IMG/VR virus record: IMGVR_UViG_3300037461_001731
Span: 4,355-68,354 of that record
DNA from: a virus
Taxonomy: Duplodnaviria; Caudoviricetes
Reading direction: 5' to 3' (one strand)
Length of the DNA stretch: 64,000 nucleotides
In this document: one piece after another, positions 41,913 to 63,877 of the stretch
How the letters are laid out: each line of letters begins with the position of its first letter
How positions within the stretch are numbered: the first letter of the stretch is position 1
Notes under the pieces: generated by a model
What the model was told of the DNA's origin: nothing
Seen by the model: the letters and a program-made list of their open reading frames with translations, nothing else
Database searches by the model: none
Program-made: the position numbers and the translations under genes

Positions 41913-42515
41913 ATGAATAATAAATATGTAAAATTTCTTGAAAAACATGTGGATTGGCATAGTATATCGAAAGATAAAAGGATATCAAAAGCTTTCATTA
42001 GAGAATTCCAGAACAAGGTTAGGTGGGAATATATTTCACGTTATCAAACGCTGTCAGAAAAATTCATTAGAGAATTTCAAGATAGAGTTAGTTGGGAATA
42101 TATTTCACATTATCAAACCTTATCAGAAGATTTTATACGAGAATTTAAAGATAATGTTAATTGGTATCATATTTCAAAGGATCAAACGTTGTCTGAAGAC
42201 TTCATTAGAGAATTTCAAGATAATGTTGATTGGGATTATGTTTCAGGTTGTCAAAAATTATCAGAAGACTTTATCAGAGAATTTAAAGATAAAGTTGATT
42301 GGATTCGCGTATCAGCATGTCAAACCTTATCAGAAGATTTCATAAGAGAATTTAAGGATGAAGTTGATTGGAGTCGTATTTCAATATGTCAAAAATTATC
42401 AGAAGACTTCATTAGAGAATTTAAAGATAGAGTTTATTGGGTAGCTATTTCATTATACCAAAAATTATCAAAAGATTTTATCAGAGAATTCAAACAAAAA
42501 GGTTATATAAAATGA
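41913..42515 (+). CDS. Trp-repeat protein, type B cap, 7 modules
   Basis: LSExFIREFxDxVxWxxISxxQ repeats. Confidence 0.9.
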   Translation: MNNKYVKFLEKHVDWHSISKDKRISKAFIREFQNKVRWEYISRYQTLSEKFIREFQDRVSWEYISHYQTLSEDFIREFKDNVNWYHISKDQTLSEDFIREFQDNVDWDYVSGCQKLSEDFIREFKDKVDWIRVSACQTLSEDFIREFKDEVDWSRISICQKLSEDFIREFKDRVYWVAISLYQKLSKDFIREFKQKGYIK

Positions 42516-43384
42516 AATGTGTAAATTGTAAAAATTTTAATATCTTTAGCACTTTTTGTAATACGTTAAGTCATCCAGTTGACCCTAATTATCATTGTAA
42601 TGGTTTTAGTAATATAAGTAATACTGTTATAAGTAACGCAAATTTAGATGCAGAGATCAAAAGAATATTGAGTTATTATGCTATAGACTATGATGTTAAC
42701 ATGTCCGGTAAAGATTTAATGCAATTTTGTAGAATAAATATTGATGACACGCAATTGGTTGAGGTGGTGTGGACTCAAAAACTATCAGAAGATTTTATTA
42801 GAGAATTTCAAGATAAAATTGACTGGAGCCACATTTTAATTAATCAAACATTATCAGAAAATTTCATCAGAGAATTTCAGGATAAAATTGACTGGGGTCT
42901 AATTTCATATAATCAAAAATTATCAGAAGACTTCATCAGAGAATTTAAAGATAAGGTTGACTGGTTTTGGATTTCTGAATGTCAAACGTTATCAGAAGAT
43001 TTCATTAGAGAATTTAAAGATAAGGTTGATTGGGATTATATTTCAGAGCATCAAATATTATCAGAAAACTTTATCAGAGAATTTCAAGACAAGGTTAACT
43101 GGGAGTGTATTTCAAGTTGTCAAACCTTATCAGAAGATTTCATTCGAGAATTTAAGGATAAGGTTGACTGGGATTATATTTCATATAATCAAAAATTATC
43201 AGAAGACTTCATCAGAGAATTTAAAGATAAGGTTGACTGGTTTTGGATTTCTGAATGTCAAACGTTATCAGAAGATTTCATTAGAGAATTTAAAGATAAG
43301 GTTGATTGGGATGAGATTTTAAAGCATCAAAAATTATCAACTAATTTCATCAATGAATTCAAACAGAAAGGTTATATTAAATGA
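42512..43384 (+). CDS. Trp-repeat protein, type C (Cys4) cap, 8 modules
   Basis: True start at the ATGA junction 42512 (MKCVNCKNF); the track start 42437 lies inside the previous gene. Confidence 0.9.
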   Translation: MKCVNCKNFNIFSTFCNTLSHPVDPNYHCNGFSNISNTVISNANLDAEIKRILSYYAIDYDVNMSGKDLMQFCRINIDDTQLVEVVWTQKLSEDFIREFQDKIDWSHILINQTLSENFIREFQDKIDWGLISYNQKLSEDFIREFKDKVDWFWISECQTLSEDFIREFKDKVDWDYISEHQILSENFIREFQDKVNWECISSCQTLSEDFIREFKDKVDWDYISYNQKLSEDFIREFKDKVDWFWISECQTLSEDFIREFKDKVDWDEILKHQKLSTNFINEFKQKGYIK

Positions 43385-43959
43385 ATAAAAAAGATATGTT
43401 AAAAGATGTTATTAATCAGTATAAACAGACACATCCTAATGATAAAAAAGATTTATTAAGTAATTTTTGGGAGGATATAAGTTATAAGGTTAAACTATCT
43501 GAAGCTTTTATCAGAGAATTTAAAGATAAAGTTTGCTGGATTAGTATTTCAGTACATCAAGAATTATCAGAAGATTTCATAAGAGAATTTAAGGATAGAG
43601 TTGAATGGAATTGGACTTCAGTAAATCAAAAATTATCAGAAGATTTCATGCGAGAATTCGAGTATAGAGTTAACTGGAGTTGGGTTTCAACGCGTCAAAC
43701 GCTGTCTGAAGATTTCATTAGAGAATTTAAAGATAAGTGGAATTGGAGTTATATTTCAAGTTGTCAAACCTTATCAGAAGATTTCATCAGAGAATTTAAG
43801 GATAAGGTTGAGTGGAGTTATATTTCAAGTTGTCAAACCTTATCAGAAAACTTCATTAGAGAATTTAAAGATAGAGTTGATTGGGATGAGATTTTAAAGC
43901 GTCAAAAATTATCAACTAATTTCATTAATGAATTCAAACAAAAAGGTTATATTAAATGA
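43381..43959 (+). CDS. Trp-repeat protein, type A cap, 6 modules
   Basis: MNKKDMLKDVINQYKQ cap + repeats. Confidence 0.9.
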   Translation: MNKKDMLKDVINQYKQTHPNDKKDLLSNFWEDISYKVKLSEAFIREFKDKVCWISISVHQELSEDFIREFKDRVEWNWTSVNQKLSEDFMREFEYRVNWSWVSTRQTLSEDFIREFKDKWNWSYISSCQTLSEDFIREFKDKVEWSYISSCQTLSENFIREFKDRVDWDEILKRQKLSTNFINEFKQKGYIK

Positions 43960-44489
43960 ATGAGAAATATAAAAATATAATTGAAAAACACGCAAACTGG
44001 AAAAGAATTTCTAAAGAAGAATTGTTATCAGAAGATTTCATTAGAGAATTTAAGGATAAAGTCTATTGGAGGAGTATTTCGATATATCAAACATTATCAG
44101 AAGACTTTATAAGAGAATTTAAGGATAAAGTTAAGTGGGGTAATATTTCAATATGTCAAACCTTATCGGAAGATTTCATTAGAGAATTTAAGAATAAGGT
44201 TGATTGGGAAAGTATTTCAGAATGTCAAATCTTATCAGAAGATTTCATTAGAGAATTTAAGGATAAGGTTGAGTGGGGTCATATTTCAAGTTGTCAAACC
44301 TTATCAGAAGATTTCATTAGAGAATTTAAGGATAAGGTTGAGTGGAGTTATATTTCAAGTTGTCAAACCTTATCAGAAGATTTCATTAGAGAATTTAAGG
44401 ATAAGGTTATTTGGTTTTGGATTTCAAGACATCAAACATTATCTGAAGACTTCATCAATGAATTCAAGCAGAAAGGGTATATTAAATGA
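43956..44489 (+). CDS. Trp-repeat protein, type B cap, 6 modules
   Basis: MNEKYKNIIEKHANW cap + repeats. Confidence 0.9.
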   Translation: MNEKYKNIIEKHANWKRISKEELLSEDFIREFKDKVYWRSISIYQTLSEDFIREFKDKVKWGNISICQTLSEDFIREFKNKVDWESISECQILSEDFIREFKDKVEWGHISSCQTLSEDFIREFKDKVEWSYISSCQTLSEDFIREFKDKVIWFWISRHQTLSEDFINEFKQKGYIK

Positions 44490-44926
44490 ATAAAAGAGAT
44501 ATGTTAAGAGATGTTATTAAGCAGTATAAACAAGAATGTTCTAATGATGAAGAAGATTTATTAATTAATTTTTGGGGGGATATAAGTTATAAGGTTAAAC
44601 TATCTGAAGCTTTTATCAGAGAATTTCAAAATAAGGTTAATTGGAGAGCTATTTCATGGAGTCAAACATTATCGGAAGACTTCATTAGAGAATTTAAGGA
44701 TAAAGTTAACTGGTATCATATTTCATGGCGTCAAACATTGTCAGAAAACTTCATTAGGGAGCTTCAAGATAAAGCTGATTGGTATTGTATTTCATATTAT
44801 CAAACATTATCAGAAGATTTTATTAGAGAATTTAAAGATAGAGTTAACTGGAGTTATATTTTATATAAACAAAAATTATCAACTAATTTCATCAATGAAT
44901 TCAAGCAGAAAGGTTATATTAAATGA
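44486..44926 (+). CDS. Trp-repeat protein, type A cap, 4 modules
   Basis: MNKRDMLRDVIKQYKQ cap + repeats. Confidence 0.9.
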   Translation: MNKRDMLRDVIKQYKQECSNDEEDLLINFWGDISYKVKLSEAFIREFQNKVNWRAISWSQTLSEDFIREFKDKVNWYHISWRQTLSENFIRELQDKADWYCISYYQTLSEDFIREFKDRVNWSYILYKQKLSTNFINEFKQKGYIK

Positions 44927-45801
44927 ATAAAGAATATACAGATATATTTAAAAAATACGCAAACTGGGAAAGAATTTCTAAAGAAGAACTGTTATCGGAA
45001 GATTTCATTAGAGAATTTGAAGCTGAAGTTAATTGGAATTGGATCTCATGGTATCAAACGCTATCAGAAGACTTCATTAGAGAATTCCAAGATGAAGTTA
45101 ATTGGTGTAAGATTTCAGAACGTCAAAAATTATCAGAAGACTTTATCAGAGAATTTAAAGGTGAAGTTTATTGGGCTGGGATTTCATGTCACCAAATGCT
45201 ATCAGAGGTCTTCATACGAGAATTTAAGAATAGAGTTGATTGGGTGGGTATTTCATCATGTCAAAAATTATCAGAAGATTTCATACGAGAATTTAAAGAT
45301 GAAGTTTATTGTGGTTATATTTCACAATATCAAGAATTATCAGAAGACTTCATTAGAGAATTTCAAGATAAAGTTAATTGGGGGCGTATTTCAAGATCTC
45401 AAACATTATCAGAAGATTTTATTAGAGAATTTAAGGATAAAGTTAATTGGGATTATATTTCAGAGCATCAAAAATTATCAGAAGACTTTATCAGAGAATT
45501 TAAAGGTGAAGTTTGCTGGATTAGTATTTCAGTACATCAAGAATTATCAGAAGACTTTATAAGAGAATTTAAGGATAAAGTTTATTGGGATTATATTTCA
45601 TGGCATCAAAAACTATCAGAAGATTTCATCAGAGAATTTAAGGATAAAGTTTATTGGATTCGTGTATCAGCATGTCAAACATTATCAGAAGATTTCATAC
45701 GAGAATTTAAAGATGAAGTTTATTGGGATTATATAGTTAGGCATCAAACACTATCAAAAGACTTTATTAATGAATTCAAGCAGAAGGGTTATATAGAATG
45801 A
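44923..45801 (+). CDS. Trp-repeat protein, type B cap, 11 modules
   Basis: MNKEYTDIFKKYANW cap + repeats. Confidence 0.9.
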   Translation: MNKEYTDIFKKYANWERISKEELLSEDFIREFEAEVNWNWISWYQTLSEDFIREFQDEVNWCKISERQKLSEDFIREFKGEVYWAGISCHQMLSEVFIREFKNRVDWVGISSCQKLSEDFIREFKDEVYCGYISQYQELSEDFIREFQDKVNWGRISRSQTLSEDFIREFKDKVNWDYISEHQKLSEDFIREFKGEVCWISISVHQELSEDFIREFKDKVYWDYISWHQKLSEDFIREFKDKVYWIRVSACQTLSEDFIREFKDEVYWDYIVRHQTLSKDFINEFKQKGYIE

Positions 45802-46124
45802 TTAAAAAATATAAAGATATAACTGAAAAATATATGGACTGGATGAGAATTTCTGAAGAAGAGTTGTTATCAGAAGACTTCATTAGGAAGTTTCAAGATA
45901 AAGTTTATTGGGGTTATATTTCACAATATCAAGAATTATCAGAAGACTTCATTAGAGAATTTCAAGATAAAGTCTATTGGAGGCGTATTTCGACATATCA
46001 AACATTATCAGAAGACTTTATAAGAGAATTTAAGGATAAAGTTGATTGGCGATATATTTCATATCATCAAAAACTATCAAAAGACTTTATTAATGAATTC
46101 AAACAGAAAGGTTATATAGAATGA
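45798..46124 (+). CDS. Trp-repeat protein, type B cap, 3 modules
   Basis: MIKKYKDITEKYMDW cap + repeats. Confidence 0.9.
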   Translation: MIKKYKDITEKYMDWMRISEEELLSEDFIRKFQDKVYWGYISQYQELSEDFIREFQDKVYWRRISTYQTLSEDFIREFKDKVDWRYISYHQKLSKDFINEFKQKGYIE

Positions 46125-46522
46125 ATAAAGAATATAAAAATATAATTGAAAAATATACATTTACTGACTGGGGAAGAATTTCTGAAGAAGAAACATTATC
46201 TGAAGATTTTATCAGGGAGTTTAAGGATAAAGTTTATTGGGGTTATATTTCAGCATGGCAAACATTATCAGAAGATTTCATACGAGAATTTGAAGATAAA
46301 GTTGATTGGGGTGATATTTCAACATATCAAAAATTATCTGAAGATTTCATACGAGAATTTAAAGATAAAGTTGATTGGGGTGATATTTCAACATATCAAA
46401 AATTATCTGAAAATTTTATTAGAGAATTTCAAGATAAAGTTAATTGGAGATGTATTTCAAGATCTCAAACATTATCAGAAGATTTTATTAAAGAATTCAA
46501 GCAGAAGGGTTATATTAAATGA
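46121..46522 (+). CDS. Trp-repeat protein, type B cap, 4 modules
   Basis: MNKEYKNIIEKYTFTDW cap + repeats. Confidence 0.9.
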   Translation: MNKEYKNIIEKYTFTDWGRISEEETLSEDFIREFKDKVYWGYISAWQTLSEDFIREFEDKVDWGDISTYQKLSEDFIREFKDKVDWGDISTYQKLSENFIREFQDKVNWRCISRSQTLSEDFIKEFKQKGYIK

Positions 46523-47040
46523 TATTTGTTACTTCGGATCATCATTTTGGGCATTATAAAATTCTTGAATATCAGAAAGATACAAGACCTTTTTGTACTA
46601 TAGACGATATGGATAATTTTTATATTGATTCATGGAATTCACAAGTATCAGATAAAGATACTGTCTATCATTTAGGTGATTTTTGCTTTAAAAATGCTAA
46701 ATTCTATTTTTCTAGATTAAGGGGGATAATAAAAGTTATTCCTGGAAATCATGACCGTTGGGCAAAAAAGAAAAAAGAGAAGTTATTTTCAGCGTCTAAC
46801 CGTGAAATAGAAATTTTGCAACCTGTGTGCGTTCTAAAAGTAGATAAAGTTAACAAGTTTGTGCTATGTCATTATCCTATGTATTCTTGGCCGCATTCAA
46901 ATTATGGAGTACTTCATTTTCACGGGCATACCCATAGAAAAATAGGATATAACGAAAATGCAATACATGTAGGTATTGATGAACATCAAAAATTACTAAG
47001 TTTAAGAGATTTTATGAAAGGTCTGTCATGGAAAAAATAG
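46519..47040 (+). CDS. calcineurin-like metallophosphoesterase
   Basis: SDHHFGH, LGDF, GNHD, HYP, HGHTH. Confidence 0.9.
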   Translation: MIFVTSDHHFGHYKILEYQKDTRPFCTIDDMDNFYIDSWNSQVSDKDTVYHLGDFCFKNAKFYFSRLRGIIKVIPGNHDRWAKKKKEKLFSASNREIEILQPVCVLKVDKVNKFVLCHYPMYSWPHSNYGVLHFHGHTHRKIGYNENAIHVGIDEHQKLLSLRDFMKGLSWKK

Positions 47041-47186
47041 TATTAAATATTATTTTATTAGTGAGTATTATTAGTATTCCTTTAATTTTTTCAATACCAA
47101 TTTTTTTAGACTATAAGCTTAAAAAATTGGAATTTTTAAGTAAAAAGTGTAAAGATAAAGATGAAAACAGAGATGAAAACTGGTGA
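47028..47186 (+). CDS. 52-aa single-pass membrane protein (not in the track)
   Basis: MEKIVLNIILLVSIISIPLIFSIPIFLDYKLKK..., translated by hand. Confidence 0.5.
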   Translation: MEKIVLNIILLVSIISIPLIFSIPIFLDYKLKKLEFLSKKCKDKDENRDENW

Positions 47187-47989
47187 TTATGATGACAAAA
47201 CCTTTTGTTAAATGGGTGGGCGGCAAGACGTCCATACTTAAGCAGTTAGTCAATAATTTTCCTAAGAACTACGATAATTATTATGAGCCTTTTGTTGGTG
47301 GAGGAGCAGTTTACTTTCAAATATTGGCTAAAAACGCTAACTTAAATGATTCAAATGGTGAATTAATAAATTCTTATAAGATTGTTAAGCACCATGTGGA
47401 AGATCTTATCTCCGAATTATTTTTGTATGAAAATACTAAGGAGTTTTTTATGGGAATAAGAGCCAAAAACCCTTTATTCCTATCTCCTGTAGAAAGAGCA
47501 GCCAGATTTATCTATTTAAATAAAACGTGTTTTAATGGTTTGTATAGAGTTAATTCAAAAAATCAGTTTAATGTTCCCTATGGGGGTTATCTTAATGCTA
47601 ATTTTTGTGATAAAAAAACTTTAAGAGATTGTTCTGAAGCGTTAAAAACTGCAAGTTTGGACGCTTCTTGTTTTTCTAATTATTTAGAAAAGGTTAATAC
47701 AAACAATACTTTTGTGTATTTAGATCCACCATATTACCCCTCTGAAAATAATTCTTTTGTTTCTTATACTAAGAGAGGTTTTGGTGAAAAAGATCATGAA
47801 CTTTTGTGCGATTGGTATAAAAAGCTTGACAGAAAGGGTGTAATGGTGTTACTATCTAATAGTGATTGTGATTGGACGAGGCTAAATTATTCTAAATTTA
47901 GAATAATTGAGGTAACTAGTAGAAGGTCTGTTGGTAGTGCTTCTGTGAGCAGGGGCAAGTATTCAGAGTTGTTAATTGCTAATTATTAG
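47183..47989 (+). CDS. dam: Dam-like DNA adenine methyltransferase
   Basis: KPFVKWVGGK, EPFVGGGAV, YLNKTCFNGLYRVN, YLDPPY. Confidence 0.93.
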   Translation: MIMMTKPFVKWVGGKTSILKQLVNNFPKNYDNYYEPFVGGGAVYFQILAKNANLNDSNGELINSYKIVKHHVEDLISELFLYENTKEFFMGIRAKNPLFLSPVERAARFIYLNKTCFNGLYRVNSKNQFNVPYGGYLNANFCDKKTLRDCSEALKTASLDASCFSNYLEKVNTNNTFVYLDPPYYPSENNSFVSYTKRGFGEKDHELLCDWYKKLDRKGVMVLLSNSDCDWTRLNYSKFRIIEVTSRRSVGSASVSRGKYSELLIANY

Positions 47990-49152: not shown

Positions 49153-49515
49153 GTGGCTGACTACGAAAAAGAACTAAACAGTTTTTTAGAACTTATTGAA
49201 AATACTGGGGTTTCTAAAAGTTTTAAAGAAAAAATGTATCCATTAGTGGAGCGTATTTTTAAAGAATTTGATGGTGAACTTAAAAATGAATTGTTGACTT
49301 TGGCTACAGAGTGTGCTATAACTAAAGCTGAAACTGAAAGTTCATTAGAAAATATAAGAATAAAATTAGGAGAAATGCAAAAAGAAAATGAATATTTAAG
49401 AGAAGCTATTAGAATTACTGTGGATTTAGTTAAAAAGAAAAAAGAAGAATGTGAGAATATAATTTCTAGTCATTATTTAAGTAAGTTAGGTGGAAAGAGT
49501 AGCATCGAGAGCTAA
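49153..49515 (+). CDS. coiled-coil hypothetical protein
   Basis: 120-aa ORF. Confidence 0.55.
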   Translation: MADYEKELNSFLELIENTGVSKSFKEKMYPLVERIFKEFDGELKNELLTLATECAITKAETESSLENIRIKLGEMQKENEYLREAIRITVDLVKKKKEECENIISSHYLSKLGGKSSIES

Positions 49516-50755
49516 AATGTCAAACCTATGCAACGATATGGCTAATGTTCTAACTTATTATAATGTTCCTTTTGAGGAAGACTTTGTTTTTGAAAAGTTT
49601 AATGAGTTAGTTAAGACACTGTCTGAAGAAGATTGGCATTTTCTTTGTAGGAATCTAAGGTTTTCCGAAGAATTTCTGCAAAAATTTGGTGAGAACTTAA
49701 ACTGGAACTTAGTTTCTTTGTTTCAAAAATTATCAGAGAGTTTTATAGAAAAAAATATAAAAAAAATAAATATTTTAAGTTTATCTGCTTATGTTAAGCT
49801 GTCTCCTGAATTCATAGATAGATACATAGATATGCTTGATCTTGAAATTTTGGTAAAAAGGCAGTTTCTCCCAGATTGGCTGATTGAAAAACATATTGAG
49901 TTATTTAAAGTTTCTTTTTTTAGTAAGCTTGACAATAAGAACATTACGTATTTAAAATTATGTGGAAGGCATCAAATTTTAGAAGAAGATCTTATTAAAA
50001 AGTACATAGAATATTTTGATTTTGAAGACCTTATCAGAAATCAACCATTGTCTGCCTTTTTTTTGGAGGACAATGTTGAAAAAATTAATTTTAAGCTAAT
50101 TTCATGTTTTCAAGTTCTATCTGAAAATTTTATTGAAAAACATTTAGAAAAATTTACATTTAAGCATTTGGCTAAGTACCAAAAGCTTTCGGAAGAGTTC
50201 ATTGATAAATATTTTAATAATTTTGTAAAAGATGAGGCTATTTCTTACTTGTGTAAGTACCAAGCCTTGTCAAAAAAGATTGTTAATAAATACATAAAAC
50301 TTTTAGATGAAGAAGCCCTTGGAAAGTATCAAATGCTTCCAAAAGGTTTTTTGAGTAAAAATGGGGTAAAAGTAAGCGAAGAGAATTGGTTTCATAAATC
50401 TAAAAATTTTAAAATCAATTATTTAAAGAATAACACAAAGTGTGAAATTGTGGATAACAACTATATTATAGCTTATATGGGCGTAAGATACAAAAATTAC
50501 GCTTTAGATAATTTTAGGAATAAATTCCTTGTTGATGTAAAGTATAAGGCATCGTGTAATGACTACATAGAAGGTCGCAAAGGTTCCGGGTTTATGGTGT
50601 GGCTAGATCCGGATTTAGCGGATCTTTTTTATGACAGTGATAAAGTGTTAAAAGTAAAAGTAAATATAAAAGACATAAGTTATATTCATCTAAAGGATGA
50701 TTTTATAAATGGGTGCGTTAACTGCTATGCGTTAGTAGTACTCAAGGAGATTTAG
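49490..50755 (+). CDS. divergent Trp-repeat family protein with extra C-terminal domain (probable start 49517)
   Basis: 23-aa periodic units such as FSEEFLQKFGENLNWNLVSLFQK and LSEEFIDKY; about 120-aa non-repetitive C-domain. Confidence 0.75.
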   Translation: MERVASRAKMSNLCNDMANVLTYYNVPFEEDFVFEKFNELVKTLSEEDWHFLCRNLRFSEEFLQKFGENLNWNLVSLFQKLSESFIEKNIKKINILSLSAYVKLSPEFIDRYIDMLDLEILVKRQFLPDWLIEKHIELFKVSFFSKLDNKNITYLKLCGRHQILEEDLIKKYIEYFDFEDLIRNQPLSAFFLEDNVEKINFKLISCFQVLSENFIEKHLEKFTFKHLAKYQKLSEEFIDKYFNNFVKDEAISYLCKYQALSKKIVNKYIKLLDEEALGKYQMLPKGFLSKNGVKVSEENWFHKSKNFKINYLKNNTKCEIVDNNYIIAYMGVRYKNYALDNFRNKFLVDVKYKASCNDYIEGRKGSGFMVWLDPDLADLFYDSDKVLKVKVNIKDISYIHLKDDFINGCVNCYALVVLKEI

Positions 50756-51877: not shown

Positions 51878-52516
51878 ATGGCAAAGTTATATTTTAAGTA
51901 CGGGACTGTTAGCAGCGCAAAAACTTTGAATCTTCTTGCTGTAGCACACAGTTATAAAAGTCAAAATAAGAAAGTTCTTCTGGTAAAACCTGAAATAGAT
52001 TCTCGTTGGGGGAAAGACGTGATAAAATCTAGAGCAGGTTTAGAGCAAAAAGCTGATATTGTATTAACAGATATTTCAGACATTTTAAATAATTCGGATA
52101 TTCGTAATTCTGAATTAGCGTGTGTTCTAGTAGATGAGGCTCAATTTTTGTCTCATTCTGCGATTAATGCTCTACGTTTTGTTGCTACGTCTTTAGACGT
52201 TCCAGTAATCTGTTATGGGCTTAGATCAGATTTTAAATCTTTTCTATTTGAAGGCTCTAGAAGGTTGTTTGAAATAGCGGATTCTATAGAAGAAATAGAA
52301 AACACTTGCTTTTTTTGTAATAAGAAAGCTACTCAAAATCTTAAACACGTTAACGGAAAACCAACGATTTTTGGGGATAGTATAGATTTAGGTGCAGAAG
52401 AGAAGTATTTGCCCGTTTGTTATGCTTGTTATGAACATAAGATAGCTAGTAGCTACGAAGGATCTTTGAAGGTCAGAATAGACGGTAGCACGTTTGACGA
52501 GAATTTGGTTGGGTGA
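51878..52516 (+). CDS. tdk: thymidine kinase
   Basis: YFKYGTVSSAKT, VDEAQF, YGLRSDF, CxxC...CxxC. Confidence 0.93.
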   Translation: MAKLYFKYGTVSSAKTLNLLAVAHSYKSQNKKVLLVKPEIDSRWGKDVIKSRAGLEQKADIVLTDISDILNNSDIRNSELACVLVDEAQFLSHSAINALRFVATSLDVPVICYGLRSDFKSFLFEGSRRLFEIADSIEEIENTCFFCNKKATQNLKHVNGKPTIFGDSIDLGAEEKYLPVCYACYEHKIASSYEGSLKVRIDGSTFDENLVG

Positions 52517-54095: not shown

Positions 54096-54420
54096 AAAAG
54101 AAATAAATACTGTTTGTGCTTATTTCATAGGTTTGTTTGTATTAAATACTTGCGATATCTTTTTTACGTTGTATGCGTTAGACCATGGATTTTTTGAAGC
54201 TAATTACTTAATGCGAAAATTGATAGAATTTTCCCCAATAGCTTTTATTTTTGTAAAGAACATTATTATAATATTGTGTTTAGCTATTTTTAGCTATGCG
54301 TTTGATTGTGGAAAATTTGATAGTAAGTTCATTATAAATATTTTAAAGTTTGTGACAAGTATTTATTTATTTGTATTGTTTATTCATATTTTTAATATGA
54401 CTATAATTTTTGGAGGTTAA
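54061..54420 (+). CDS. DUF5658-like membrane protein
   Basis: LNTCDIFFTLYAL..G..EANYLM with transmembrane segments. Confidence 0.6.
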   Translation: MIFPTLKKTCIEKEINTVCAYFIGLFVLNTCDIFFTLYALDHGFFEANYLMRKLIEFSPIAFIFVKNIIIILCLAIFSYAFDCGKFDSKFIINILKFVTSIYLFVLFIHIFNMTIIFGG

Positions 54421-54847
54421 CATGTCTGAAATAATTTATCCAAATTTTGTTGGAGATTTAGCGGAATTAGTGGGTAAACCTACAGTTGCGAATGATGCTT
54501 TTTATGGATGTTTAGCTATAAATAAAAAATTAAATTCTTTTATTTTAATTTCTAACTCTATAAAGCCGAAAGATGATTTAGCTATTCCTCTTTCACCTGG
54601 ATATTATTTTGAATTGGTTACAGAAGATCATCCAACATTGGGGAAAGATTTAGATTATGTTGAAGAAATATGTTCTAATATTGACTGGTCGCTTTTATCT
54701 TCGGATTGGGAATATAGCTCTATGAATGTGTCTAAACTTTTTGTAAAATGTAATATGTGCAAACACTTCTCTTTGCTTAACTTGTACTGCAATTTGACAA
54801 ATAAGCGAAAAGATCCAGGAAGTGGTTGTTATTGTGGGGAATTGTAA
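54410..54847 (+). CDS. hypothetical protein with C-terminal Cys4 module
   Basis: CNMCKHFSLLNLYC...KDPGSGC. Confidence 0.6.
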   Translation: MEVNMSEIIYPNFVGDLAELVGKPTVANDAFYGCLAINKKLNSFILISNSIKPKDDLAIPLSPGYYFELVTEDHPTLGKDLDYVEEICSNIDWSLLSSDWEYSSMNVSKLFVKCNMCKHFSLLNLYCNLTNKRKDPGSGCYCGEL

Positions 54848-54866: not shown

Positions 54867-55337
54867 TTACTTTGTTTCCTCAAACAATATATAACATATT
54901 AAACTTTCTATCACTCCTTCAGTATTTACTGGACTAGCACAATTCCCGTATCGCTCTAGGCTAATTTCCATGTTATGTAGGATAGCGTCTTTTTGACTAC
55001 AAATTAGTCTTTTTTTGTTGATTTCTTTTGTAAAGACTGATTTTCCAGACAAAATCATTTGCTTATAGTACTCCGTTGGGATTTTTTCTAAAATTAAGCT
55101 ATTATAATAAATTAAACCATATAAAAGTTCTTGTTTTGGGGATTTCGTTGTTATAAAGTCATTAAAATCTTCGTTAACTTTTGCTAGTACTTTTTCTTCT
55201 AATTTTGAGAAAAAATACAAAAAGTTTTCTTTTTTTATTTCTGTTATAAAATCGCAAAATTTTTCTATATTTTTCATTTTTTTCTCCAAAAAAGCAGTTG
55301 ATTTAGTATTTAAGATAACCTTTTTGCTTGAATTCAT
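54867..55337 (-). CDS. hypothetical protein (probable start at MKNIEK)
   Basis: Follows the minus-strand repeat genes; GGAG RBS before MKNIEK. Confidence 0.55.
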   Translation of the reverse strand: MNSSKKVILNTKSTAFLEKKMKNIEKFCDFITEIKKENFLYFFSKLEEKVLAKVNEDFNDFITTKSPKQELLYGLIYYNSLILEKIPTEYYKQMILSGKSVFTKEINKKRLICSQKDAILHNMEISLERYGNCASPVNTEGVIESLICYILFEETK

Positions 55338-55677
55338 TAATGAAACTGGTTGATAGCCTTTGATTGTTAACTATATAACCCCAATCAACTTCATCTTTAA
55401 ATTCTCTGATGAAATCTTCTGATAATTTTTGACACATTGAAATCCATGTCCAGTTAACCTTATCTTTAAATTCTCTGATAAAATTTTCTGATAGTTTTTG
55501 ATATTGTAAAATAAAACGCCAGTCAACTTTATCCTTAAATTCTCTAATAAAATCTTCTGATAGCTTAACATAATTACTCACTTCTTTCCAAAAATCCTTT
55601 AATAAGTCTTTTTTATCATTAGGATATTTCTGCTTATACTGATTAATAACATCTTTTAACATATCTTTTTTATTCAT
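55303..55677 (-). CDS. Trp-repeat protein, type A cap, 3 modules (array 2)
   Basis: MNKKDMLKDVINQYKQ cap + repeats + FINEFKQKGYLKY. Confidence 0.9.
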   Translation of the reverse strand: MNKKDMLKDVINQYKQKYPNDKKDLLKDFWKEVSNYVKLSEDFIREFKDKVDWRFILQYQKLSENFIREFKDKVNWTWISMCQKLSEDFIREFKDEVDWGYIVNNQRLSTSFINEFKQKGYLKY

Positions 55678-56138
55678 TTAATATAACCTTTCTGCTTGAA
55701 TTCTCGTATGAAATCTTCTGACAATGTTTGATATTTTGATATATGATACCAACTAACTTTATCTTTAAATTCTCTAATGAAATCTTCTGATAATTTTTGA
55801 CCCCATGAAATATTTTTCCAATTAACTTTATCCTTAAATTCTCGTATGAAGTCTTCTGACAATGTTTGATGCCATGAAATACAATACCAACTAACCTTAT
55901 CTTGAAACTCTCTAATGAAGTCTTCCGATAGTGTTTGCTTATGAGAAATATGATCCCAGACAACCTCATCCTTAAATTCTCTAATGAAATCTTCTGATAA
56001 TTTTTTAGCCCATGAAATGCTGCCCCAGTCACCCGTATCTTTAAATTCTCTAATGAAATCTTCTGGTAATTTTTTTTCTTTAGAAATTTTCTTCCAATCT
56101 ATATATTCAATAAGTATATATATATTTATTTTATTCAT
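55674..56138 (-). CDS. Trp-repeat protein, type B cap, 5 modules (array 2)
   Basis: Start at the ATGA junction (MNKINIY). Confidence 0.9.
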   Translation of the reverse strand: MNKINIYILIEYIDWKKISKEKKLPEDFIREFKDTGDWGSISWAKKLSEDFIREFKDEVVWDHISHKQTLSEDFIREFQDKVSWYCISWHQTLSEDFIREFKDKVNWKNISWGQKLSEDFIREFKDKVSWYHISKYQTLSEDFIREFKQKGYIK

Positions 56139-56190
56139 TCTATATACCATTTCTGCTTGAATTCATTAATGAAATTTTCAGATTATGTGA
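56135..56190 (-). pseudogene. orphan, inactivated C-cap/junction (SENFINEFKQKWYIE*)
   Basis: Matches the conserved gene end, but ACATAA replaces ACATTA and there is no upstream gene. Confidence 0.8.
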
Positions 56191-57122: not shown

Positions 57123-57128
57123 TACAAT

Positions 57129-58198: not shown

Positions 58199-58200
58199 CT

Positions 58201-58912: not shown

Positions 58913-59156
58913 TCTTATTTAAATTTTTTACAATAAATATTTGATCGAGCAGCTTTGGTTTACACTACAAAAGGACTGTAGTTATAATTTGTGGTGTAAA
59001 TTAGTTGCTTTAATTAAGGTTAATTGTTATAAATTGTGATAAAATTACTTTTTAGCGAAATACTTTTATATTTTGGACATACCAAGTCAAGCAATTCTTA
59101 TTAAAATCAAATACTTATCAGTAACTTAGAAAAATCAAAAAATTTTTGAAAAAATC

Positions 59157-59185
59157 TTGACAACCCGCCAAGCCTGGTTTATATT
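59157..59185 (+). promoter_or_regulatory. sigma70 promoter (twin of 61442)
   Basis: TTGACA-17 bp-TATATT; flanks identical to the 61442 promoter. Confidence 0.75.
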
Positions 59186-59226
59186 ATAAATAGAAGACGG
59201 GATATAACTAAAAAGGAGAAAGAAAA

Positions 59227-59520
59227 ATGGTTGTAATTTCAAGAAATAAAGCGGAAAAACTAAGAGCCTTGTATAAGCCCCAATTTATAGGAAAATCAAG
59301 CTTTTTCGAAACTGCTATTTTTCTTTATTTAAGGCATAATTTACAATCTAGCCAAAAAGCCATTGTCAATTCTTTTTTAAGTGTACTTTGTAGCGAGTGT
59401 ATCGATCAAATCGCAGACGTTTTGTCTTCTGAAAAATTATTGACTTTATTTGTTGTTACAGAAAATTTAAATGAATGTTATTATGTATTTAACGGTGAAA
59501 TAGACCACATAAATGATTAA
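59227..59520 (+). CDS. hypothetical protein
   Basis: AAGGAG RBS, 97 aa. Confidence 0.55.
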   Translation: MVVISRNKAEKLRALYKPQFIGKSSFFETAIFLYLRHNLQSSQKAIVNSFLSVLCSECIDQIADVLSSEKLLTLFVVTENLNECYYVFNGEIDHIND

Positions 59521-59525
59521 ATATC

Positions 59526-59900
59526 ATGAAATGTAATAACTGTAGAAACTTTAATATTTTCAGTACTGTATGTAATATATTCAGTCATCCAGTTGATCCT
59601 AATTATTATTGTAATAGTTTTAGTAATACAAATAATAGCGCTGTAAGTAATACAAATACGAACGAAGCTGTTAAACATACTAATTTGTATTATCTTGAAC
59701 AAGGTATAGAATTTCAAATAATAAGTATTTATAATGAAGTTATGGATCAAAAAGTAGAAGCAGCAACCTCAGAACAAGCAGCTATTTTTAAAGCGCAAAT
59801 TTTTGTAGAGAAATTATTGGAAGCGGGTATGTCTCTTTCGGAAGCTAAAGCAATATGTGGTTTAACAAAAGACAAAGGTTTTAATTCACTTTTTAGTTAA
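59526..59900 (+). CDS. chimeric protein: type C Cys4 cap fused to a copy of the C-terminal domain of the 1026-aa virion-like protein
   Basis: N-half matches 42512/63074; C-half matches 28861-29055. Confidence 0.85.
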   Translation: MKCNNCRNFNIFSTVCNIFSHPVDPNYYCNSFSNTNNSAVSNTNTNEAVKHTNLYYLEQGIEFQIISIYNEVMDQKVEAATSEQAAIFKAQIFVEKLLEAGMSLSEAKAICGLTKDKGFNSLFS

Positions 59901-59925
59901 AACAAGGGCTTATTATGTCGGAAAA

Positions 59926-59988
59926 ATGGAATTAAAACTGTCATACAATTTCATTAATGAATTCAAACAGAAAGGGTATATAAAATGA
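59926..59988 (+). CDS. 20-aa zero-repeat mini-ORF consisting only of the C-cap (MELKLSYNFINEFKQKGYIK)
   Basis: Translated by hand; ends in the ATGA junction of 59985. Confidence 0.5.
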   Translation: MELKLSYNFINEFKQKGYIK

Positions 59989-60704
59989 ATAAAAAAGATA
60001 TGCTAACAGACGTCATTAAGCAGTATAAACAGAAATATCTTAATTATAAAAAAGATTTATTAAATGATTTTTGGGATTATATAAGTTATAAGGTTAAATT
60101 ACCAGAAGCTTTTATCAGAGCATTTAAAGATAATGTTAATTGGTATTGTATATCAGAGCACCAAAAATTATCTGAAGATTTCATACGAGAATTTAAGGAT
60201 AATGTTGATTGGGATTGGATTTCATTTTATCAAGCACTGTCAGAAGATTTTATACGAGAATTTAAGGATAATGTTAATTGGTATTGTATTTCATGGCATC
60301 AAAAACTATCAGAAGATTTCATCAGAGAATTTAAGGATGAAGTTAGCTGGGATTATATTTCACAACATCAAAAATTATCAGAAGATTTTATACGAGAATT
60401 TAAAGATAGGGTTGATTGGTATCGGATTTCATGTCATCAAAAACTATCAGAAGACTTTATCAGAGAGTTTAAGAGTAGAGTTTGCTGGATTGGTATTTCA
60501 CATTATCAAATATTATCAGAGGATTTTATAAGGGAATTTAAGGATAAAGTTTATTGGAATTATATTTCAGCATGGCAAACATTATCAGAAGATTTCATAC
60601 GAGAATTTGAAGATAAGGTCGACTGGTGGAATTATATAGTTAAGTATCAAAAATTATCAACCAGCTTCATTAATGAACTCAAGCAGAAAGGGTATATAAA
60701 ATGA
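59985..60704 (+). CDS. Trp-repeat protein, type A cap, 8 modules (array 3)
   Basis: MNKKDMLTDVIKQYKQ cap + repeats. Confidence 0.9.
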   Translation: MNKKDMLTDVIKQYKQKYLNYKKDLLNDFWDYISYKVKLPEAFIRAFKDNVNWYCISEHQKLSEDFIREFKDNVDWDWISFYQALSEDFIREFKDNVNWYCISWHQKLSEDFIREFKDEVSWDYISQHQKLSEDFIREFKDRVDWYRISCHQKLSEDFIREFKSRVCWIGISHYQILSEDFIREFKDKVYWNYISAWQTLSEDFIREFEDKVDWWNYIVKYQKLSTSFINELKQKGYIK

Positions 60705-61417
60705 ATAAAAGAGATATGTTAAAAGATGTCATTAAACAATATAAGCAGATATATCCTAATGATAAAAAATACTTATTAAAAGATTTTTATGAAATAATAG
60801 GTATAAATTGTGAACTGTCTGAAGATTTTATAAGAGAATTCCAAAATAAGGTTAATTGGAATAATATTTCACTGTACCAAACATTATCAGAAGATTTCAT
60901 TAGAGAATTTAAAGATGAAGTATGCTGGTATTATATTTCAACACATCAAACACTATCAGGAGACTTCATTAGAGAATTTAAGAATAAGGTTGATTGGTCT
61001 TGTATTTCAGGGTGTCAAAAACTATCAGAAGATTTCATCAGAGAATTTAAGAATAAAGTTGACTGGTATTATATTTCAATACATCAGACGTTATCAGAAA
61101 ACTTCATAAGAGAATTTCAAGATAAAGTTGATTGGGAATATATTTCATGTCATCAAAAACTATCAGAAGACTTTATAAGAGAATTTCAAGATAAAGTTGA
61201 TTGGTATAACATTTCATGGCATCAAACATTATCAGAAGATTTTATCAGAGAATTCCAAGATAAAGTTAACTGGGGTTGTATTTCAGCATATCAAAAATTA
61301 TCTGAAGATTTTATTATAGAATTTAAGAATAAAGTTGGCTGGAAATATATTTCAGAATATCAAAGCCTATCAACCAATTTCATTAATGAATTCAAGCAGA
61401 AAGGGTACATTAAATGA
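60701..61417 (+). CDS. Trp-repeat protein, type A cap, 8 modules (array 3)
   Basis: MNKRDMLKDVIKQYKQ cap + repeats. Confidence 0.9.
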   Translation: MNKRDMLKDVIKQYKQIYPNDKKYLLKDFYEIIGINCELSEDFIREFQNKVNWNNISLYQTLSEDFIREFKDEVCWYYISTHQTLSGDFIREFKNKVDWSCISGCQKLSEDFIREFKNKVDWYYISIHQTLSENFIREFQDKVDWEYISCHQKLSEDFIREFQDKVDWYNISWHQTLSEDFIREFQDKVNWGCISAYQKLSEDFIIEFKNKVGWKYISEYQSLSTNFINEFKQKGYIK

Positions 61418-61441
61418 ATTTTAAAAATATTTGAAAAAATC

Positions 61442-61470
61442 TTGACAATCCACCAAATCCATCTTATATT
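61442..61470 (+). promoter_or_regulatory. sigma70 promoter (twin of 59157)
   Basis: TTGACA-17 bp-TATATT. Confidence 0.75.
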
Positions 61471-61511
61471 ATAAATAGAAGATGCGACAAACAAAAAAGG
61501 AGATAAGAAAA

Positions 61512-61748
61512 ATGTATTGTAGAATATGTGGCTCAGAACGAAATGCTCGATATAGGGCATCTAAATTACAATTTCTTTGTAAAGAATGTAATAAGGATAC
61601 TCCTAAAAAAATATCTTATGACGATTTTACAGAAAAATTTTGGAGAAACGATGATAATGTGCCTTTTTCGATGAAAAGAGAATTTTATCAGGATTATCTT
61701 TCTTCATGCTGTACTTATGACGAGTATGTTATAGCTGTTACAGGTTAG
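61512..61748 (+). CDS. small zinc-finger protein
   Basis: CRIC...CKEC; ATG after AAGGAG. Confidence 0.6.
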   Translation: MYCRICGSERNARYRASKLQFLCKECNKDTPKKISYDDFTEKFWRNDDNVPFSMKREFYQDYLSSCCTYDEYVIAVTG

Positions 61749-61770
61749 CTATTTTAGAAAGGAAAAAACT

Positions 61771-62079
61771 ATGATTAAAGAATACACTTTTGACCATATT
61801 GTAACCGCTTGGGATTTTATCAATAATACCGATTATGTTTGGGTAGAAAGACTTAAACTTAACGCTGACAATATATATAAGGCGATTCAGGATTTTGTTA
61901 TATTTAATTTAAAATCTGATTTGCGACAAGGGGTTGAATGTTATGTTGATTATGTCTTTCGTGACAATTGGACGCTAGATGAATACAAGCTAAAGTTTGG
62001 TAAAGAAGCTTTAAACCGCCTTAGAAAAACAATTGATCTACGTGAGAATAACGAAATAATTTTTTCAGAAGATATTTAA
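61771..62079 (+). CDS. hypothetical protein, paralog of 53619-53921
   Basis: See paralog. Confidence 0.7.
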   Translation: MIKEYTFDHIVTAWDFINNTDYVWVERLKLNADNIYKAIQDFVIFNLKSDLRQGVECYVDYVFRDNWTLDEYKLKFGKEALNRLRKTIDLRENNEIIFSEDI

Positions 62080-62089
62080 AAGAGGCTCA

Positions 62090-62413
62090 ATGGAAAAAGA
62101 ATACTGGATAGTTTATTTGCACGATTCTTTGTGTGGAACAAGTACAAGATTGGTAATGCTTGACCATGCGCCAAATAAGGCGGAAATCCTTAGATTGTTT
62201 AAGTATTATATAAATTTTTTTCTAAAAAAATGTGAAGGATTTAAACAGTCAATGTCTATTTCTTTTTTAAAAGATTTGGATGATGATGCTGTGTCTGCTA
62301 CTGAAATTTTGTACAAATACACTGTAAAAAGGCTTAGCTACACAGTGGAAAAACAAACGGATGAGGCAGAGATAAGCAATAAATTTAGTCTTCCAAAAGA
62401 ATATCTGGTTTAA
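62090..62413 (+). CDS. hypothetical protein
   Basis: GAGG RBS, 107 aa. Confidence 0.55.
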   Translation: MEKEYWIVYLHDSLCGTSTRLVMLDHAPNKAEILRLFKYYINFFLKKCEGFKQSMSISFLKDLDDDAVSATEILYKYTVKRLSYTVEKQTDEAEISNKFSLPKEYLV

Positions 62414-62420
62414 AAAGATA

Positions 62421-62449
62421 TTGACATTTTATTATTTAATAGTTATATT
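62421..62449 (+). promoter_or_regulatory. sigma70 promoter
   Basis: TTGACA-17 bp-TATATT. Confidence 0.7.
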
Positions 62450-62511
62450 TTAATTAGAAGTTGGTAAAAATGTACTAAAAAGGTACGGTTTATCAAAAGG
62501 AGAATTTAGAA

Positions 62512-63051
62512 ATGGAAGTGTTAACTAAAGGTGTGAATCACAATTTTTTTTGCGCACTAGTTGTAGAATTTAAAAATGAAGAGTATACTATAAATTTAAC
62601 AAATATTGAAAAGAGTCAGATTTTAAATGCATTAAGTAGTTTTGATTTAAATAAAATATATGTACAAGATTTTTTAGGATTAGAATCTATTGTAAATTCT
62701 ATTTTAGAATATTTCAAAAATAAGTCTTTTGAAGAATGTTTAGACTATGCGCTTGATGTTGTTAACTTATTTCAAGAGTATGGAGATCTTTTTATAGCCG
62801 TCTATGATGAAGAAAATTGTTTAAATGCAGTGAAAAAAATTTTTAGAGAGTACCAGTATAGCGGTTATTGTGAAAACTTGGGAACTTTTGCAAAAATAAA
62901 ATTGTTATCAAGGTACACTTTGCCGGAAATCGCAATAAAACATATAAATTGGGAAAAATTGGCGATAGATTTTCTAAAAACGGAAGATGGTTCTTATCTT
63001 TTTTATCGTGATTACGAAGGAGACGGATATTACATAATGATCAAAAATTGA
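62512..63051 (+). CDS. ArdA-like antirestriction protein
   Basis: C-terminal YSGYCENLGTFAK...LPEIAIKHINWEKLAIDF parallels ArdA (YQG.Y....FA....IP......DYE..ARDL). Confidence 0.5.
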   Translation: MEVLTKGVNHNFFCALVVEFKNEEYTINLTNIEKSQILNALSSFDLNKIYVQDFLGLESIVNSILEYFKNKSFEECLDYALDVVNLFQEYGDLFIAVYDEENCLNAVKKIFREYQYSGYCENLGTFAKIKLLSRYTLPEIAIKHINWEKLAIDFLKTEDGSYLFYRDYEGDGYYIMIKN

Positions 63052-63073
63052 TCTGTAAATAAGGTTATATAAA

Positions 63074-63877
63074 ATGAAATGTGTAAATTGTAAAAATTTT
63101 AATATCTTTAGCACTTTTTGTAATACGTTAAGTCATCCGGTTGACCCTAATTATCATTGTAATAGTTTTAGTAATATAAGTAATACTGTTATAAGTAACA
63201 TAAATTTAGATGAAGAGATCAAAAGAGTATTGAGTTATTCTGCTATAGACTATGATAGTAATCTATCTGGTAACGATTTAGTGCAATTCTGTAGGATAAT
63301 TCTTAATAATGATCAATGTGGTAGAATAGGATGGACCCAAAAATTATCTGAAGATTTCATACGAGAATTTAAGGATAATGTTGATTGGCATTGTATTTCA
63401 ATACATCAAATATTGTCAGAAGATTTTATACGAGAATTTAAGGATAGGGTTGATTGGGGGTCTATTTCAGAATTTCAAACATTATCAGAAGATTTCATAC
63501 GAGAATTTAAGGATAGGGTTGATTGGAGAAATATATCAATAGATCAAACACTATTAGAAGATTTCATACGAGAATTTAAGGATAGGGTTGATTGGGATTA
63601 TATTTCAGAGCATCAAGTACTGGTAGAAGATTTCATCAGAGAGCTTAAAGACAAGGTTGATTGGGGTATGATTTCATATTATCAAACACTATTAGAAGAT
63701 TTCATACGAGAATTTAAGGATAGGGTTGATTGGGATTATATTTCAGAGCAGCAAACATTATCAGAAGATTTCATACGAGAATTTAAGGATAGGGTTGATT
63801 GGGATACGATTCCATATTACCAAACATTATCAACCAATTTCATTAATGAATTCAAGCAGAAAGGTTATATAAAATGA
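63074..63877 (+). CDS. Trp-repeat protein, type C (Cys4) cap, 7 modules (array 4)
   Basis: N-cap nearly identical to 42512. Confidence 0.9.
   Translation: MKCVNCKNFNIFSTFCNTLSHPVDPNYHCNSFSNISNTVISNINLDEEIKRVLSYSAIDYDSNLSGNDLVQFCRIILNNDQCGRIGWTQKLSEDFIREFKDNVDWHCISIHQILSEDFIREFKDRVDWGSISEFQTLSEDFIREFKDRVDWRNISIDQTLLEDFIREFKDRVDWDYISEHQVLVEDFIRELKDKVDWGMISYYQTLLEDFIREFKDRVDWDYISEQQTLSEDFIREFKDRVDWDTIPYYQTLSTNFINEFKQKGYIK

Follow-up and report, generated by a model that had tools for sequence, protein, structure and literature searches.

The tryptophan repeat gene family, a name in use in the literature (PMC12484599, PMC7728225, PMC6669658), shares a 23-aa unit with an invariant tryptophan and an LSE.FI.EF core, occurring in many copies per genome and often in tandem, across jumbo phages (Bacillus phages vB_BpuM-BpSp and G, Listeria phage LPJP1), entomopoxviruses, iridoviruses and giant viruses. 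An F-box has been reported for one of the entomopoxvirus proteins, AMV254 (PMC7728225). We found look-alike clusters in Nucleocytoviricota and Uroviricota, and giant-virus MAGs also yielded matches to the repeat family. Module-scale copying that gives combinatorial variants of a variable surface is a feature of Borrelia vlsE/vls, Neisseria pilE/pilS and lamprey VLR. In repeat families such as ankyrin and LRR, interlocus gene conversion and unequal crossover leave short non-reciprocal tracts between paralogs and mosaic genes, accompanied by intragenic unit duplication and diversifying substitution at binding-surface positions, as in the genes described here; the general theory of concerted and birth-and-death evolution has been set out previously (PMC3966223, PMC3924837).

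The window analysed here, 64,000 nt of DNA to which all positions refer, is part of a 68-kb contig from a large wetland phage, and contains 80 in-phase modules of 23 aa (69 nt) spread over 13 complete genes, with a 14th truncated at the contig end (Table 1). Tryptophan occupies module position 15 in 79 of the 80 modules, and the framework is invariant, with an entropy of 2.5–3.9 bits at positions 14, 16, 17, 20 and 21 and 1.9 bits at position 23. Each gene consists of a head (type A, B or C), 3–11 modules and a conserved tail, with A heads linked to LS[EK]DFI tails and B and C heads to LSTNFI tails. The genes of the arrays are complete and follow one another in operon-like strings with ATGA overlaps, and all 13 genes carry their own ATG and a Shine-Dalgarno-like site within the tail of the preceding gene; a promoter and terminator scan yielded no informative signal in DNA as AT-rich as this. 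In a scan of the contig, 27 places matched the repeat family, and the only repeat fragments outside genes were two short orphan tail remnants, one of which precedes the second ATG of g9 (56138), likely the true start of that gene. Long second-frame ORFs within the arrays (e.g. 41938-42345) were discounted, being a by-product of periodic sequence.

Table 1 Repeat genes, tail remnant and recombination genes of the window.
Feature	Position	Strand	Description
UvsX/RecA-like recombinase	16058..17104	+	PHROG 97, E 6e-84
SbcC-like nuclease subunit	18388..20499	+	PHROG 77, E 4e-54
g1	41913..42515	+	head A, 7 modules, tail LSKDFIREFKQKGYIK
g2	42512..43384	+	Cys-rich 90-aa head type C, 8 modules
g3	43381..43959	+	head B, 6 modules, four-way mosaic
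g4	43956..44489	+	head A, 6 modules, internally homogenised; structure predicted
g5	44486..44926	+	head B, 4 modules, no recent partner tract
g6	44923..45801	+	head A, 11 modules; segments like g7, g2, g3, g11, g1
g7	45798..46124	+	head A, 3 modules
g8	46121..46522	+	head A, 4 modules, internal tandem copy
Diverged 421-aa family member	49490..50755	+	degenerate repeats and non-repeat C-terminal part
g10	55303..55677	-	head B, 3 modules, no recent partner tract
g9	55674..56150	-	head A, 5 modules, no recent partner tract
Orphan tail remnant	59926-59988		5' of g11
g11	59985..60704	+	head B, 8 modules; tracts in common with g8 and g6
g12	60701..61417	+	head B, 8 modules, no recent partner tract
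g13	63074..63877	+	head C, 7 modules
g14	63874..64000	+	head-B gene, cut by contig end

These arrays belong to the already named tryptophan repeat gene family (PHROG 3532), which g6 matched at E 1.3e-99; by tblastn, g4 was 48.7% identical over 88% to a BpSp gene annotated "tryptophan repeat gene family protein", and family phages were matched at 49–58% identity in 31–40 places per genome. Compared with known members, the genes here are short, have three alternative heads and end in a conserved tail whose sequence runs over the start codon of the following gene. The phage is not closely related to any of the family phages named above, its DNA polymerase reaching no more than 30% identity. No F-box was seen here. 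An exact look-up of ten proteins in a protein collection, an array megablast against a phage database, a query of the upstream gene against metagenome contigs and a search of viral contigs for the tail/start junction pattern each returned no match, and g3 as a query recovered distant family members only. The downstream phosphoesterase query retrieved loci only 33–40% identical, five of which were checked, none with repeat genes.

A preliminary description of this DNA held that repeat modules are copied and shuffled between genes, arrays and strands, an interpretation that our analysis partly supports. All seven variable signatures it quoted were found in the genes named for them: WIRVSACQ in g1 and g6, CWISISVHQE in g3 and g6, GYISQYQE in g6 and g7, WSYISSCQ twice in g3 and once in g4, WDYISEHQ in g2, g6 and g13, WYCISWHQ in g9 and g11, and the seventh in g8 and g11. 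Twelve module pairs were identical at all four hypervariable positions considered (16, 17, 20 and 21), whereas 0.47 were expected under column shuffles and at most 5 pairs arose in 5000 of them. Against a codon-column-shuffled null, in-phase exact runs of at least 40 nt numbered 23 (1.46 expected) and those of at least 50 nt numbered 9 (0.03 expected), and 31% of 69-nt windows had a partner at 63/69 or better, compared with 1.5% in the null. Shared signatures were accompanied by shared synonymous sites in the strong tracts, but WYCISWHQ, WDYISEHQ in its comparison with g13 and WIRVSACQ lay at or below background in this respect. The claimed exchange between strands, exemplified by WYCISWHQ in the minus-strand g9 and in g11, lacked support at the DNA level, the match covering only 27 nt built from strongly preferred codons with a framework synonymous identity of 7/14, under background; owing to codon bias, DNA identity is uninformative for this signature, for part of WDYISEHQ and for WIRVSACQ. 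Copying between genes and arrays is supported where sub-gene tracts link paralogs; g9 and g10, on the minus strand, have no significant tract.

The statement that neighbouring modules differ each time was borne out statistically, the neighbours of module pairs matching at 62/69 or better averaging 54.5/69 against a background of 52.6, but not without exception, as g6.5/g7.1 adjoins g6.4/g7.0 at 63/69. Gene-scale collinearity, sought by neighbour-lag correlation, was not found (lag-1 r = 0.08, not significant). Applied to the 79 distinct modules, a PHI test gave no significant result (P about 0.8–0.9); homoplasy saturates every pair of sites, which leaves the test powerless at the scale of single modules.

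At the DNA level, the exact 135-bp duplication described within g2 (42902-43036 = 43178-43312) is present and its exact match extends to neither side; it sits in a 193-nt tract of 94% identity (42844-43036 with 43120-43312) that is shorter than the 276-nt offset, which indicates a patch rather than a simple tandem duplication. The mosaic g3 combines a B head, a g6-like first module (43507-43597 with g6 45487-45577, 87/91), g4-like modules 3–5 (43708-43868 with g4 44238-44398, 150/161) and a g2-like end comprising the last module and tail. Within g4, 44025-44339 resembles 44094-44408 (276/315), and 44025-44132 matches g7 45936-46043 (103/108). The long g6 shares 45296-45450 with g7 45895-46049 (144/155), 45547-45651 with g11 60240-60344 (98/105) and 45550-45726 with g1 42195-42371 (156/177); with a tail identical to that of g6 at 46 of 48 positions, g7 has the appearance of a g6 relative that has been shortened and carries a g4-like patch. 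Beside its internal copy (46226-46378 with 46295-46447, 139/153), g8 has a tract at 46205-46299 that recurs 14 kb away in g11 at 60522-60616 (91/95, 57 nt exact). Finally, g13 contains an internal exact copy of 70 nt (63543-63612 = 63681-63750), and its 5' junction and head equal those of g2 over 78 exact nt (63061-63138 = 42499-42576).

Tract lengths were about 90–193 nt, or 1.3–2.8 modules, and the tracts listed at 93–96% identity compare with a mean module identity of 75.5%. Beyond the tracts identity falls to background and whole neighbouring modules are not included, the ends being fuzzy because background framework identity is already 85%. Head and tail subfamilies were often crossed, as in g3(B)-g4(A), g3(B)-g6(A), g8(A)-g11(B), g6(A)-g11(B) and g2(C)-g6(A). 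Recent partners exist for about one third of the array sequence, and four genes (g5, g9, g10 and g12) lack any. These observations support the copying of sub-gene tracts between non-collinear positions of paralogs, an outcome that whole genes duplicating and then diverging uniformly could not give. Relative to families of the ankyrin and LRR type, this one is phage-borne, with a 23-aa module predicted to form two helices and tracts of merely 1.3–2.8 modules.

The preliminary description set this exchange against divergence after duplication, an opposition that did not survive the substitution counts. In close module pairs, the six hypervariable codons carried 41 nonsynonymous and 3 synonymous changes, compared with 15 and 31 in the framework, so that point substitution, with selection either diversifying or relaxed, is a main source of variety. 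An AlphaFold2 model of g4 (pLDDT 96.4) has two helices per module and places the hypervariable residues at i, i+1, i+4 and i+5 of the helix bearing the tryptophan, and the repeat proteins are confidently predicted to be two-helix solenoids whose variation lies on one helical face. The best VIA-align structural matches (4xl5_C, 6moj_A and 1lrv_A) were weak and generic, with Z of 5.1–5.4, a range common among helical repeats, and an rmsd of about 5 Å; Foldseek gave no match against the PDB at E ≤0.001, sequence searches of Pfam, NCBIfam and the PDB returned only spurious low-complexity-like matches, and no ankyrin, HEAT or LRV sequence profile gave a meaningful Pfam match at cut-off. The predicted two-helix stack with variable residues on one face is reminiscent of the alpha-solenoid binder scaffolds, namely DARPins (ankyrin), alphaRep (HEAT-like) and the leucine-rich variant 1LRV, although the repeat here is shorter at 23 aa.

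Could the shared signatures reflect old identity by descent, or convergence on selected binding residues, while the rest of each gene diverged without recombination? About 0.5 chance signature coincidences are expected, the PHI test was not significant, and WYCISWHQ (g9/g11), WDYISEHQ with g13 and WIRVSACQ, with their preferred codons and background-level framework, agree with such an origin. As a general account, however, it appears improbable, and for the strongest 8–10 tracts it is already refuted: exact runs of 46–135 nt cross framework synonymous sites and module boundaries, framework identity is 0.94–1.0 within tracts compared with 0.70–0.82 in their flanks (a post hoc test), and the tracts join different head and tail subfamilies. 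Quite improbable, too, is that a short-read assembler fused reads of paralogs or strains and so made the mosaics and the 135-bp duplication, even though this is a metagenome contig of modest depth (about 14x in run X1), the same samples contain strain or paralog variants, the Logan unitigs are interrupted all along the arrays and the end of the contig falls within a repeat gene. Mis-joins rearrange flanks and cannot create identical tracts; the reads themselves must contain the shared sequence. The 135-nt repeat is probably the only one longer than the largest k-mer usual in assembly, and one unitig (43007-43137) bridges the 3' end of its first copy into unique sequence. In addition, unitigs from four runs reproduced the local sequence exactly, frame, head and tail are intact in all 13 genes, and the genome of a cultured phage, LPJP1, has the same kind of copies. 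The array sequence comes from a single metagenome assembly, on which long-range connectivity rests, and the Logan contigs of four wetland runs were compared with 41400-47100 using unitigs of 100–400 nt, too short to resolve alleles. Unitig "joints" considered as mosaic alleles proved to be cross-mapping from other paralogs, one inserted stretch encoding the g14 head.

The likeness to VLR assembly and antigenic variation drawn in the preliminary description would imply programmed diversification, in which a dedicated mechanism copies silent donor modules into an expressed gene at high frequency in every generation. Module-scale copies linking genes, in some cases 14 kb apart, variation concentrated on one surface, and the conserved junctions and orphan tails could all be read in this way, but we regard such a system as highly unlikely. 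All 13 genes are complete, so there is no division into an expression site and silent cassettes, the two short tail remnants being the only fragments outside genes, and no incomplete gene with flanking cassettes of the lamprey VLR type was found in the arrays. RVT_1 has no match in the 68-kb contig (about 38% of the genome), whereas control genomes do match, and the hypervariable codons are not limited to NNY, W, E, K and Q being frequent. Moreover, a recent partner exists for only about 31% of the array, and the recombination genes present are of the general UvsX and SbcC kinds. With neither a single expression site, nor silent partial donors, nor an incomplete germline gene, the resemblance to vls, pilE/pilS and VLR lies, by analogy, in outcome and not in architecture, and the exchange is real yet unexceptional gene-family evolution rather than a programmed cassette system.

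We consider it likely that this tryptophan repeat multigene family evolves by birth and death combined with ectopic homologous recombination and surface point substitution. Each gene would encode a small alpha-solenoid with an N-terminal cap (the head), 3–11 two-helix modules and a C-terminal cap, and the tandem genes would undergo birth and death. Ordinary ectopic homologous recombination may join in-phase 69-nt modules of different genes by short-patch gene conversion or template switching over roughly 90–190 nt, by intragenic module duplication, or by unequal crossover at modules or at conserved tail/start junctions, the latter together with the two orphan tails suggesting homology for unequal crossover at the level of whole genes. 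The UvsX-like and SbcC-like machinery of the phage probably performs the exchange, the UvsX/RecA-like protein being, from its sequence, a candidate enzyme for the tracts. Meanwhile, on the first helix of every module, nonsynonymous point substitution would alter five or six solvent-facing positions of a single face, resulting in a common scaffold with a differing surface stripe that most plausibly binds host or phage proteins.

For a family among the largest unexplained in jumbo phages and giant viruses, this analysis contributes the predicted two-helix solenoid fold, the location of variation on one face and the short-tract exchange while that face diversifies, and together they make a testable hypothesis of binding modules in an arms race, for which the hypervariable positions are candidates to mutate or graft. 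The evolutionary claim is only modestly surprising, since the exchange mechanism is textbook recombination among repeats. A bolder reading, which we regard as speculative and rather unlikely, is that at least 14 small solenoid binders form a repertoire in which module recombination and surface hypermutability continually make new specificities in nature; such a repertoire would supply a "library" for counter-defence or host takeover and, with its 23-aa unit, a natural scaffold to set beside DARPins, and co-occurring phage genomes would differ in their mosaic alleles. Metagenomes hold thousands of homologs of the repeat family. The region of phage G examined had no exact copies of at least 35 nt, the tandem repeat genes of LPJP1 had exact in-phase copies of 49–56 nt, and giant-virus MAG contigs had such copies of up to 100 nt; recent sub-gene copies are more prominent in the present arrays than in the examined region of phage G or in LPJP1.

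Thirteen complete repeat genes (g1 to g13), together with a fourteenth truncated by the contig end (g14), follow one shared plan in which N-terminal heads and C-terminal tails cap 3–11 modules per gene, 80 in total, each exactly 23 aa (69 nt) long with the consensus LSEDFIREFKDKVxWxxISxxQx. The module framework hardly changes in protein sequence but varies synonymously in its DNA, and entropy reaches 2.5–3.9 bits at module positions 14, 16, 17, 20 and 21 and 1.9 bits at position 23. The head is a degenerate module (type A; g1, g4, g6, g7, g8 and g9), a 38-aa MNKKDML... cap (type B; g3, g5, g10, g11, g12 and g14) or a 90-aa Cys-rich domain (type C; g2 and g13), with LS[EK]DFI tails accompanying A heads and LSTNFI tails accompanying heads of types B and C. 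Tails end in ...EFKQKGYIK, their last codons containing a GAAAGG-like ribosome-binding site and overlapping the ATG of the next gene (ATGA). The g13/g14 array runs on past the end of the assembly, as the repeat family probably does too. In an AlphaFold2 model of g4, run with a 27-row alignment (pLDDT 96.4, pTM 0.86), each module forms two short helices, W-x-x-I-S-x-x and S-E-D-F-I-R, and the modules stack as a solenoid, with the hypervariable residues on one face of the W-helix (i, i+1, i+4 and i+5) and W, I, S and Q on the other. Fold searches with this model returned generic solenoids only (Z ~5), the level at which it resembles DARPin, alphaRep and 1LRV.

The preliminary description had proposed that modules are copied and shuffled, citing an exact 135-bp duplication and seven variable signatures that recur across genes, all of which are present. 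Against a null in which codon columns were shuffled among modules, we observed 12 module pairs identical at all four main hypervariable residues (0.47 in the null), 9 in-phase exact runs of at least 50 nt (0.03), and a partner matching at least 63/69 for 31% of 69-nt windows (1.5%); the longest exact run in the null had a 95th percentile of 48 nt. The best tracts span 91–193 nt at 93–96% identity, compared with a mean of 75.5% between modules, and further internal copies occur in g4, g8 and g13. The g2 tract does not fill its 276-nt offset and is therefore a patch rather than a simple tandem copy.

Features of the repeat arrays and of the phage around them (window positions)
Feature	Position	Partner	Length	Remark
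Tract in g2	42844-43036	g2 43120-43312	193 nt	
Tract in g3	43708-43868	g4 44238-44398	161 nt	
Tract in g6	45296-45450	g7 45895-46049	155 nt	
Tract in g4	44025-44132	g7 45936-46043	108 nt	
Tract in g6	45547-45651	g11 60240-60344	105 nt	
Tract in g8	46205-46299	g11 60522-60616	95 nt	
Tract in g3	43507-43597	g6 45487-45577	91 nt	
g2/g13 match	42499-42576	63061-63138	78 nt	exact, 20 kb apart
Orphan tail before g11	59926-59988			...NFINEFKQKGYIK stop
Orphan tail before g9	~56139-56190			minus strand; ...FINEFKQKWYIE stop
g14	63874-64000			head type B, MNKKDMLKDAIKQYKQ...; begins at g13 stop, truncated by contig end
Diverged family member	49490-50755		421 aa	
Repeat-free stand-alone gene	59526-59900			opens with type-C-like Cys motif (MKCNNCRNFNIFS...)
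Gene with comparable Cys-rich motif	54410-54847			motif at its end
UvsX-like recombinase	16058-17104			
ORF between UvsX-like and SbcC-like genes	17111-18229			PHROG match absent
SbcC-like nuclease	18388-20499			
Calcineurin-like phosphoesterase	46519-47040			between or beside arrays
Dam-type N6-adenine methyltransferase	47183-47989			between or beside arrays
Thymidine kinase	51878-52516			between or beside arrays

Neighbours of close module pairs match at 54.5/69 versus 52.6 (lag-1 r = 0.08); similarity is thus not carried over to whole neighbouring modules, and gene-scale collinearity is absent. Tracts often connect genes from differing head/tail subfamilies, and several partners paint single genes (g3 by g6, g4 and g2; g6 by g7, g2, g3, g11 and g1), making module and gene relationships incongruent, the outcome for which the preliminary description had proposed a test. 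Exchange lies mostly in the g1–g8 cluster, with two clear long-range cases, both to g11; in the 69-nt window comparison over the arrays, no recent partner was found for g5, g9, g10 and g12.

Whether shared signatures reflect copying or convergence has a mixed answer. Framework synonymous-codon identity averaged 0.80 in signature-sharing pairs versus 0.72 (P = 0.005), reaching 0.94–1.0 for g2.2/g2.6, g3.4/g4.4 and g8.1/g8.2 (gene and module number) and 0.87 for g3.0/g6.7, while several other signature pairs were at background. In alignments, long exact runs extend from one module into the next for CWISISVHQE (46 nt), WSYISSCQ (60 nt), GYISQYQE (62 nt) and YISAWQ... (57 nt), whereas the WYCISWHQ pair has 27 nt in common and no more, and these are silent on descent because they consist of codons of 88–96% usage (Y, C, H) and the single-codon W. 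Copying is thus well supported for four of the seven signature groups and moderately or partially for WIRVSACQ and WDYISEHQ, but unsupported for WYCISWHQ. The suggested exchange across strands likewise lacks support, with a synonymous identity of 0.50 in the minus-strand case g9.2/g11.2 and both g9 and g10 among the genes without a recent partner. In module pairs matching at least 62/69, hypervariable codons carry 41 nonsynonymous to 3 synonymous differences, compared with 15 to 31 in the framework. Once modules have been copied, point substitutions on the exposed face are thus a major source of difference, and variants are both spread and erased by recombination.

The observation itself is thus confirmed and its proposed interpretation supported in part. 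Module-scale recombination in these arrays is real, and ordinary ectopic homologous recombination probably accounts for it, combining unequal crossover with short-patch conversion or template switching. A framework that is in phase and 85% identical would favour such events, as would the conserved tail/start junctions. The UvsX-like and SbcC-like genes are encoded by the phage itself and, with the ORF between them, appear from their sequence to form its own recombination module. The two orphan tails, each directly upstream of the first gene of its array, are probably scars of such recombination; the true g9 start is probably the second ATG, 56138. A shorter junction remnant (AAGGTTATATAAA) lies upstream of g13 and a degenerate form upstream of g1. 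The g2/g13 match starts 13 nt ahead of the ATG and runs 65 nt into the type C head, the two heads being 88% identical overall. The two other genes with Cys-rich motifs had no match in Pfam or NCBIfam. The likening of the arrays to VLR assembly or antigenic-variation cassettes was not supported: neither silent cassettes nor a single expression site were found among the arrays and contig, no reverse transcriptase was found in the contig, and the hypervariable codons showed no NNY restriction, so that a programmed system is unindicated.

The repeat genes correspond to PHROG 3532, the 'tryptophan repeat gene family', a name given to Bacillus phage proteins (BpSp and G; PMC12484599) as well as to those of entomopoxviruses and iridoviruses (PMC7728225, PMC6669658). 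Scoring covered more than 2,600 homologs from metagenomes, and look-alike clusters are viral (Nucleocytoviricota and Uroviricota). LPJP1 likewise carries tandem arrays of tryptophan-repeat genes and, like giant-virus MAG contigs, exact in-phase copies of 49–100 nt; those in giant-virus MAG contigs L012 (6069-6520) and L009/L010 (6080-6790) are intragenic and reach 92–100 nt, indicating recent module copying outside phages too. With none seen in the region of phage G examined, recent copying is recurrent, not universal, in the family. The present arrays are a new, clear case of this known evolutionary mode, module-scale recombination, in a named viral repeat family to which PHROG 3532 assigns no function.

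The window (bases 4355-68354) is taken from a linear IMG/VR virus contig of 68,354 bp (CheckV completeness ~38%), with G+C of ~30% and nearly all genes on the + strand. The contig encodes helicases, a DnaC-like loader, primase, family-A DNA polymerase and clamp loader, besides ribonucleotide reductase and a baseplate-wedge-like protein, and the replication and recombination set together with the latter identifies the source as a tailed phage, probably near jumbo in size. No close relative was retrieved from the phage database or from viral and metagenome contigs. The analysis is based on one short-read metagenome assembly; the sequence was found in four wetland metagenome runs, whose unitigs confirm local sequence, not long-range order.

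Long second-frame ORFs within the arrays (41938-42345, 42957-43322, 45017-45562, 46146-46559, 60133-60531 and, on the minus strand, 55670-56032) are most simply a by-product of the stop-free repeat unit, and their periodicity matches the repeats. The 1026-aa ORF at 25975-29055, without a PHROG match, contains a perfect, G+C-rich 39-nt tandem repeat in 3 copies (28687-28802) encoding an Ala/Pro/Gln-rich stretch, and this part is the sole 40% G+C region of the window.
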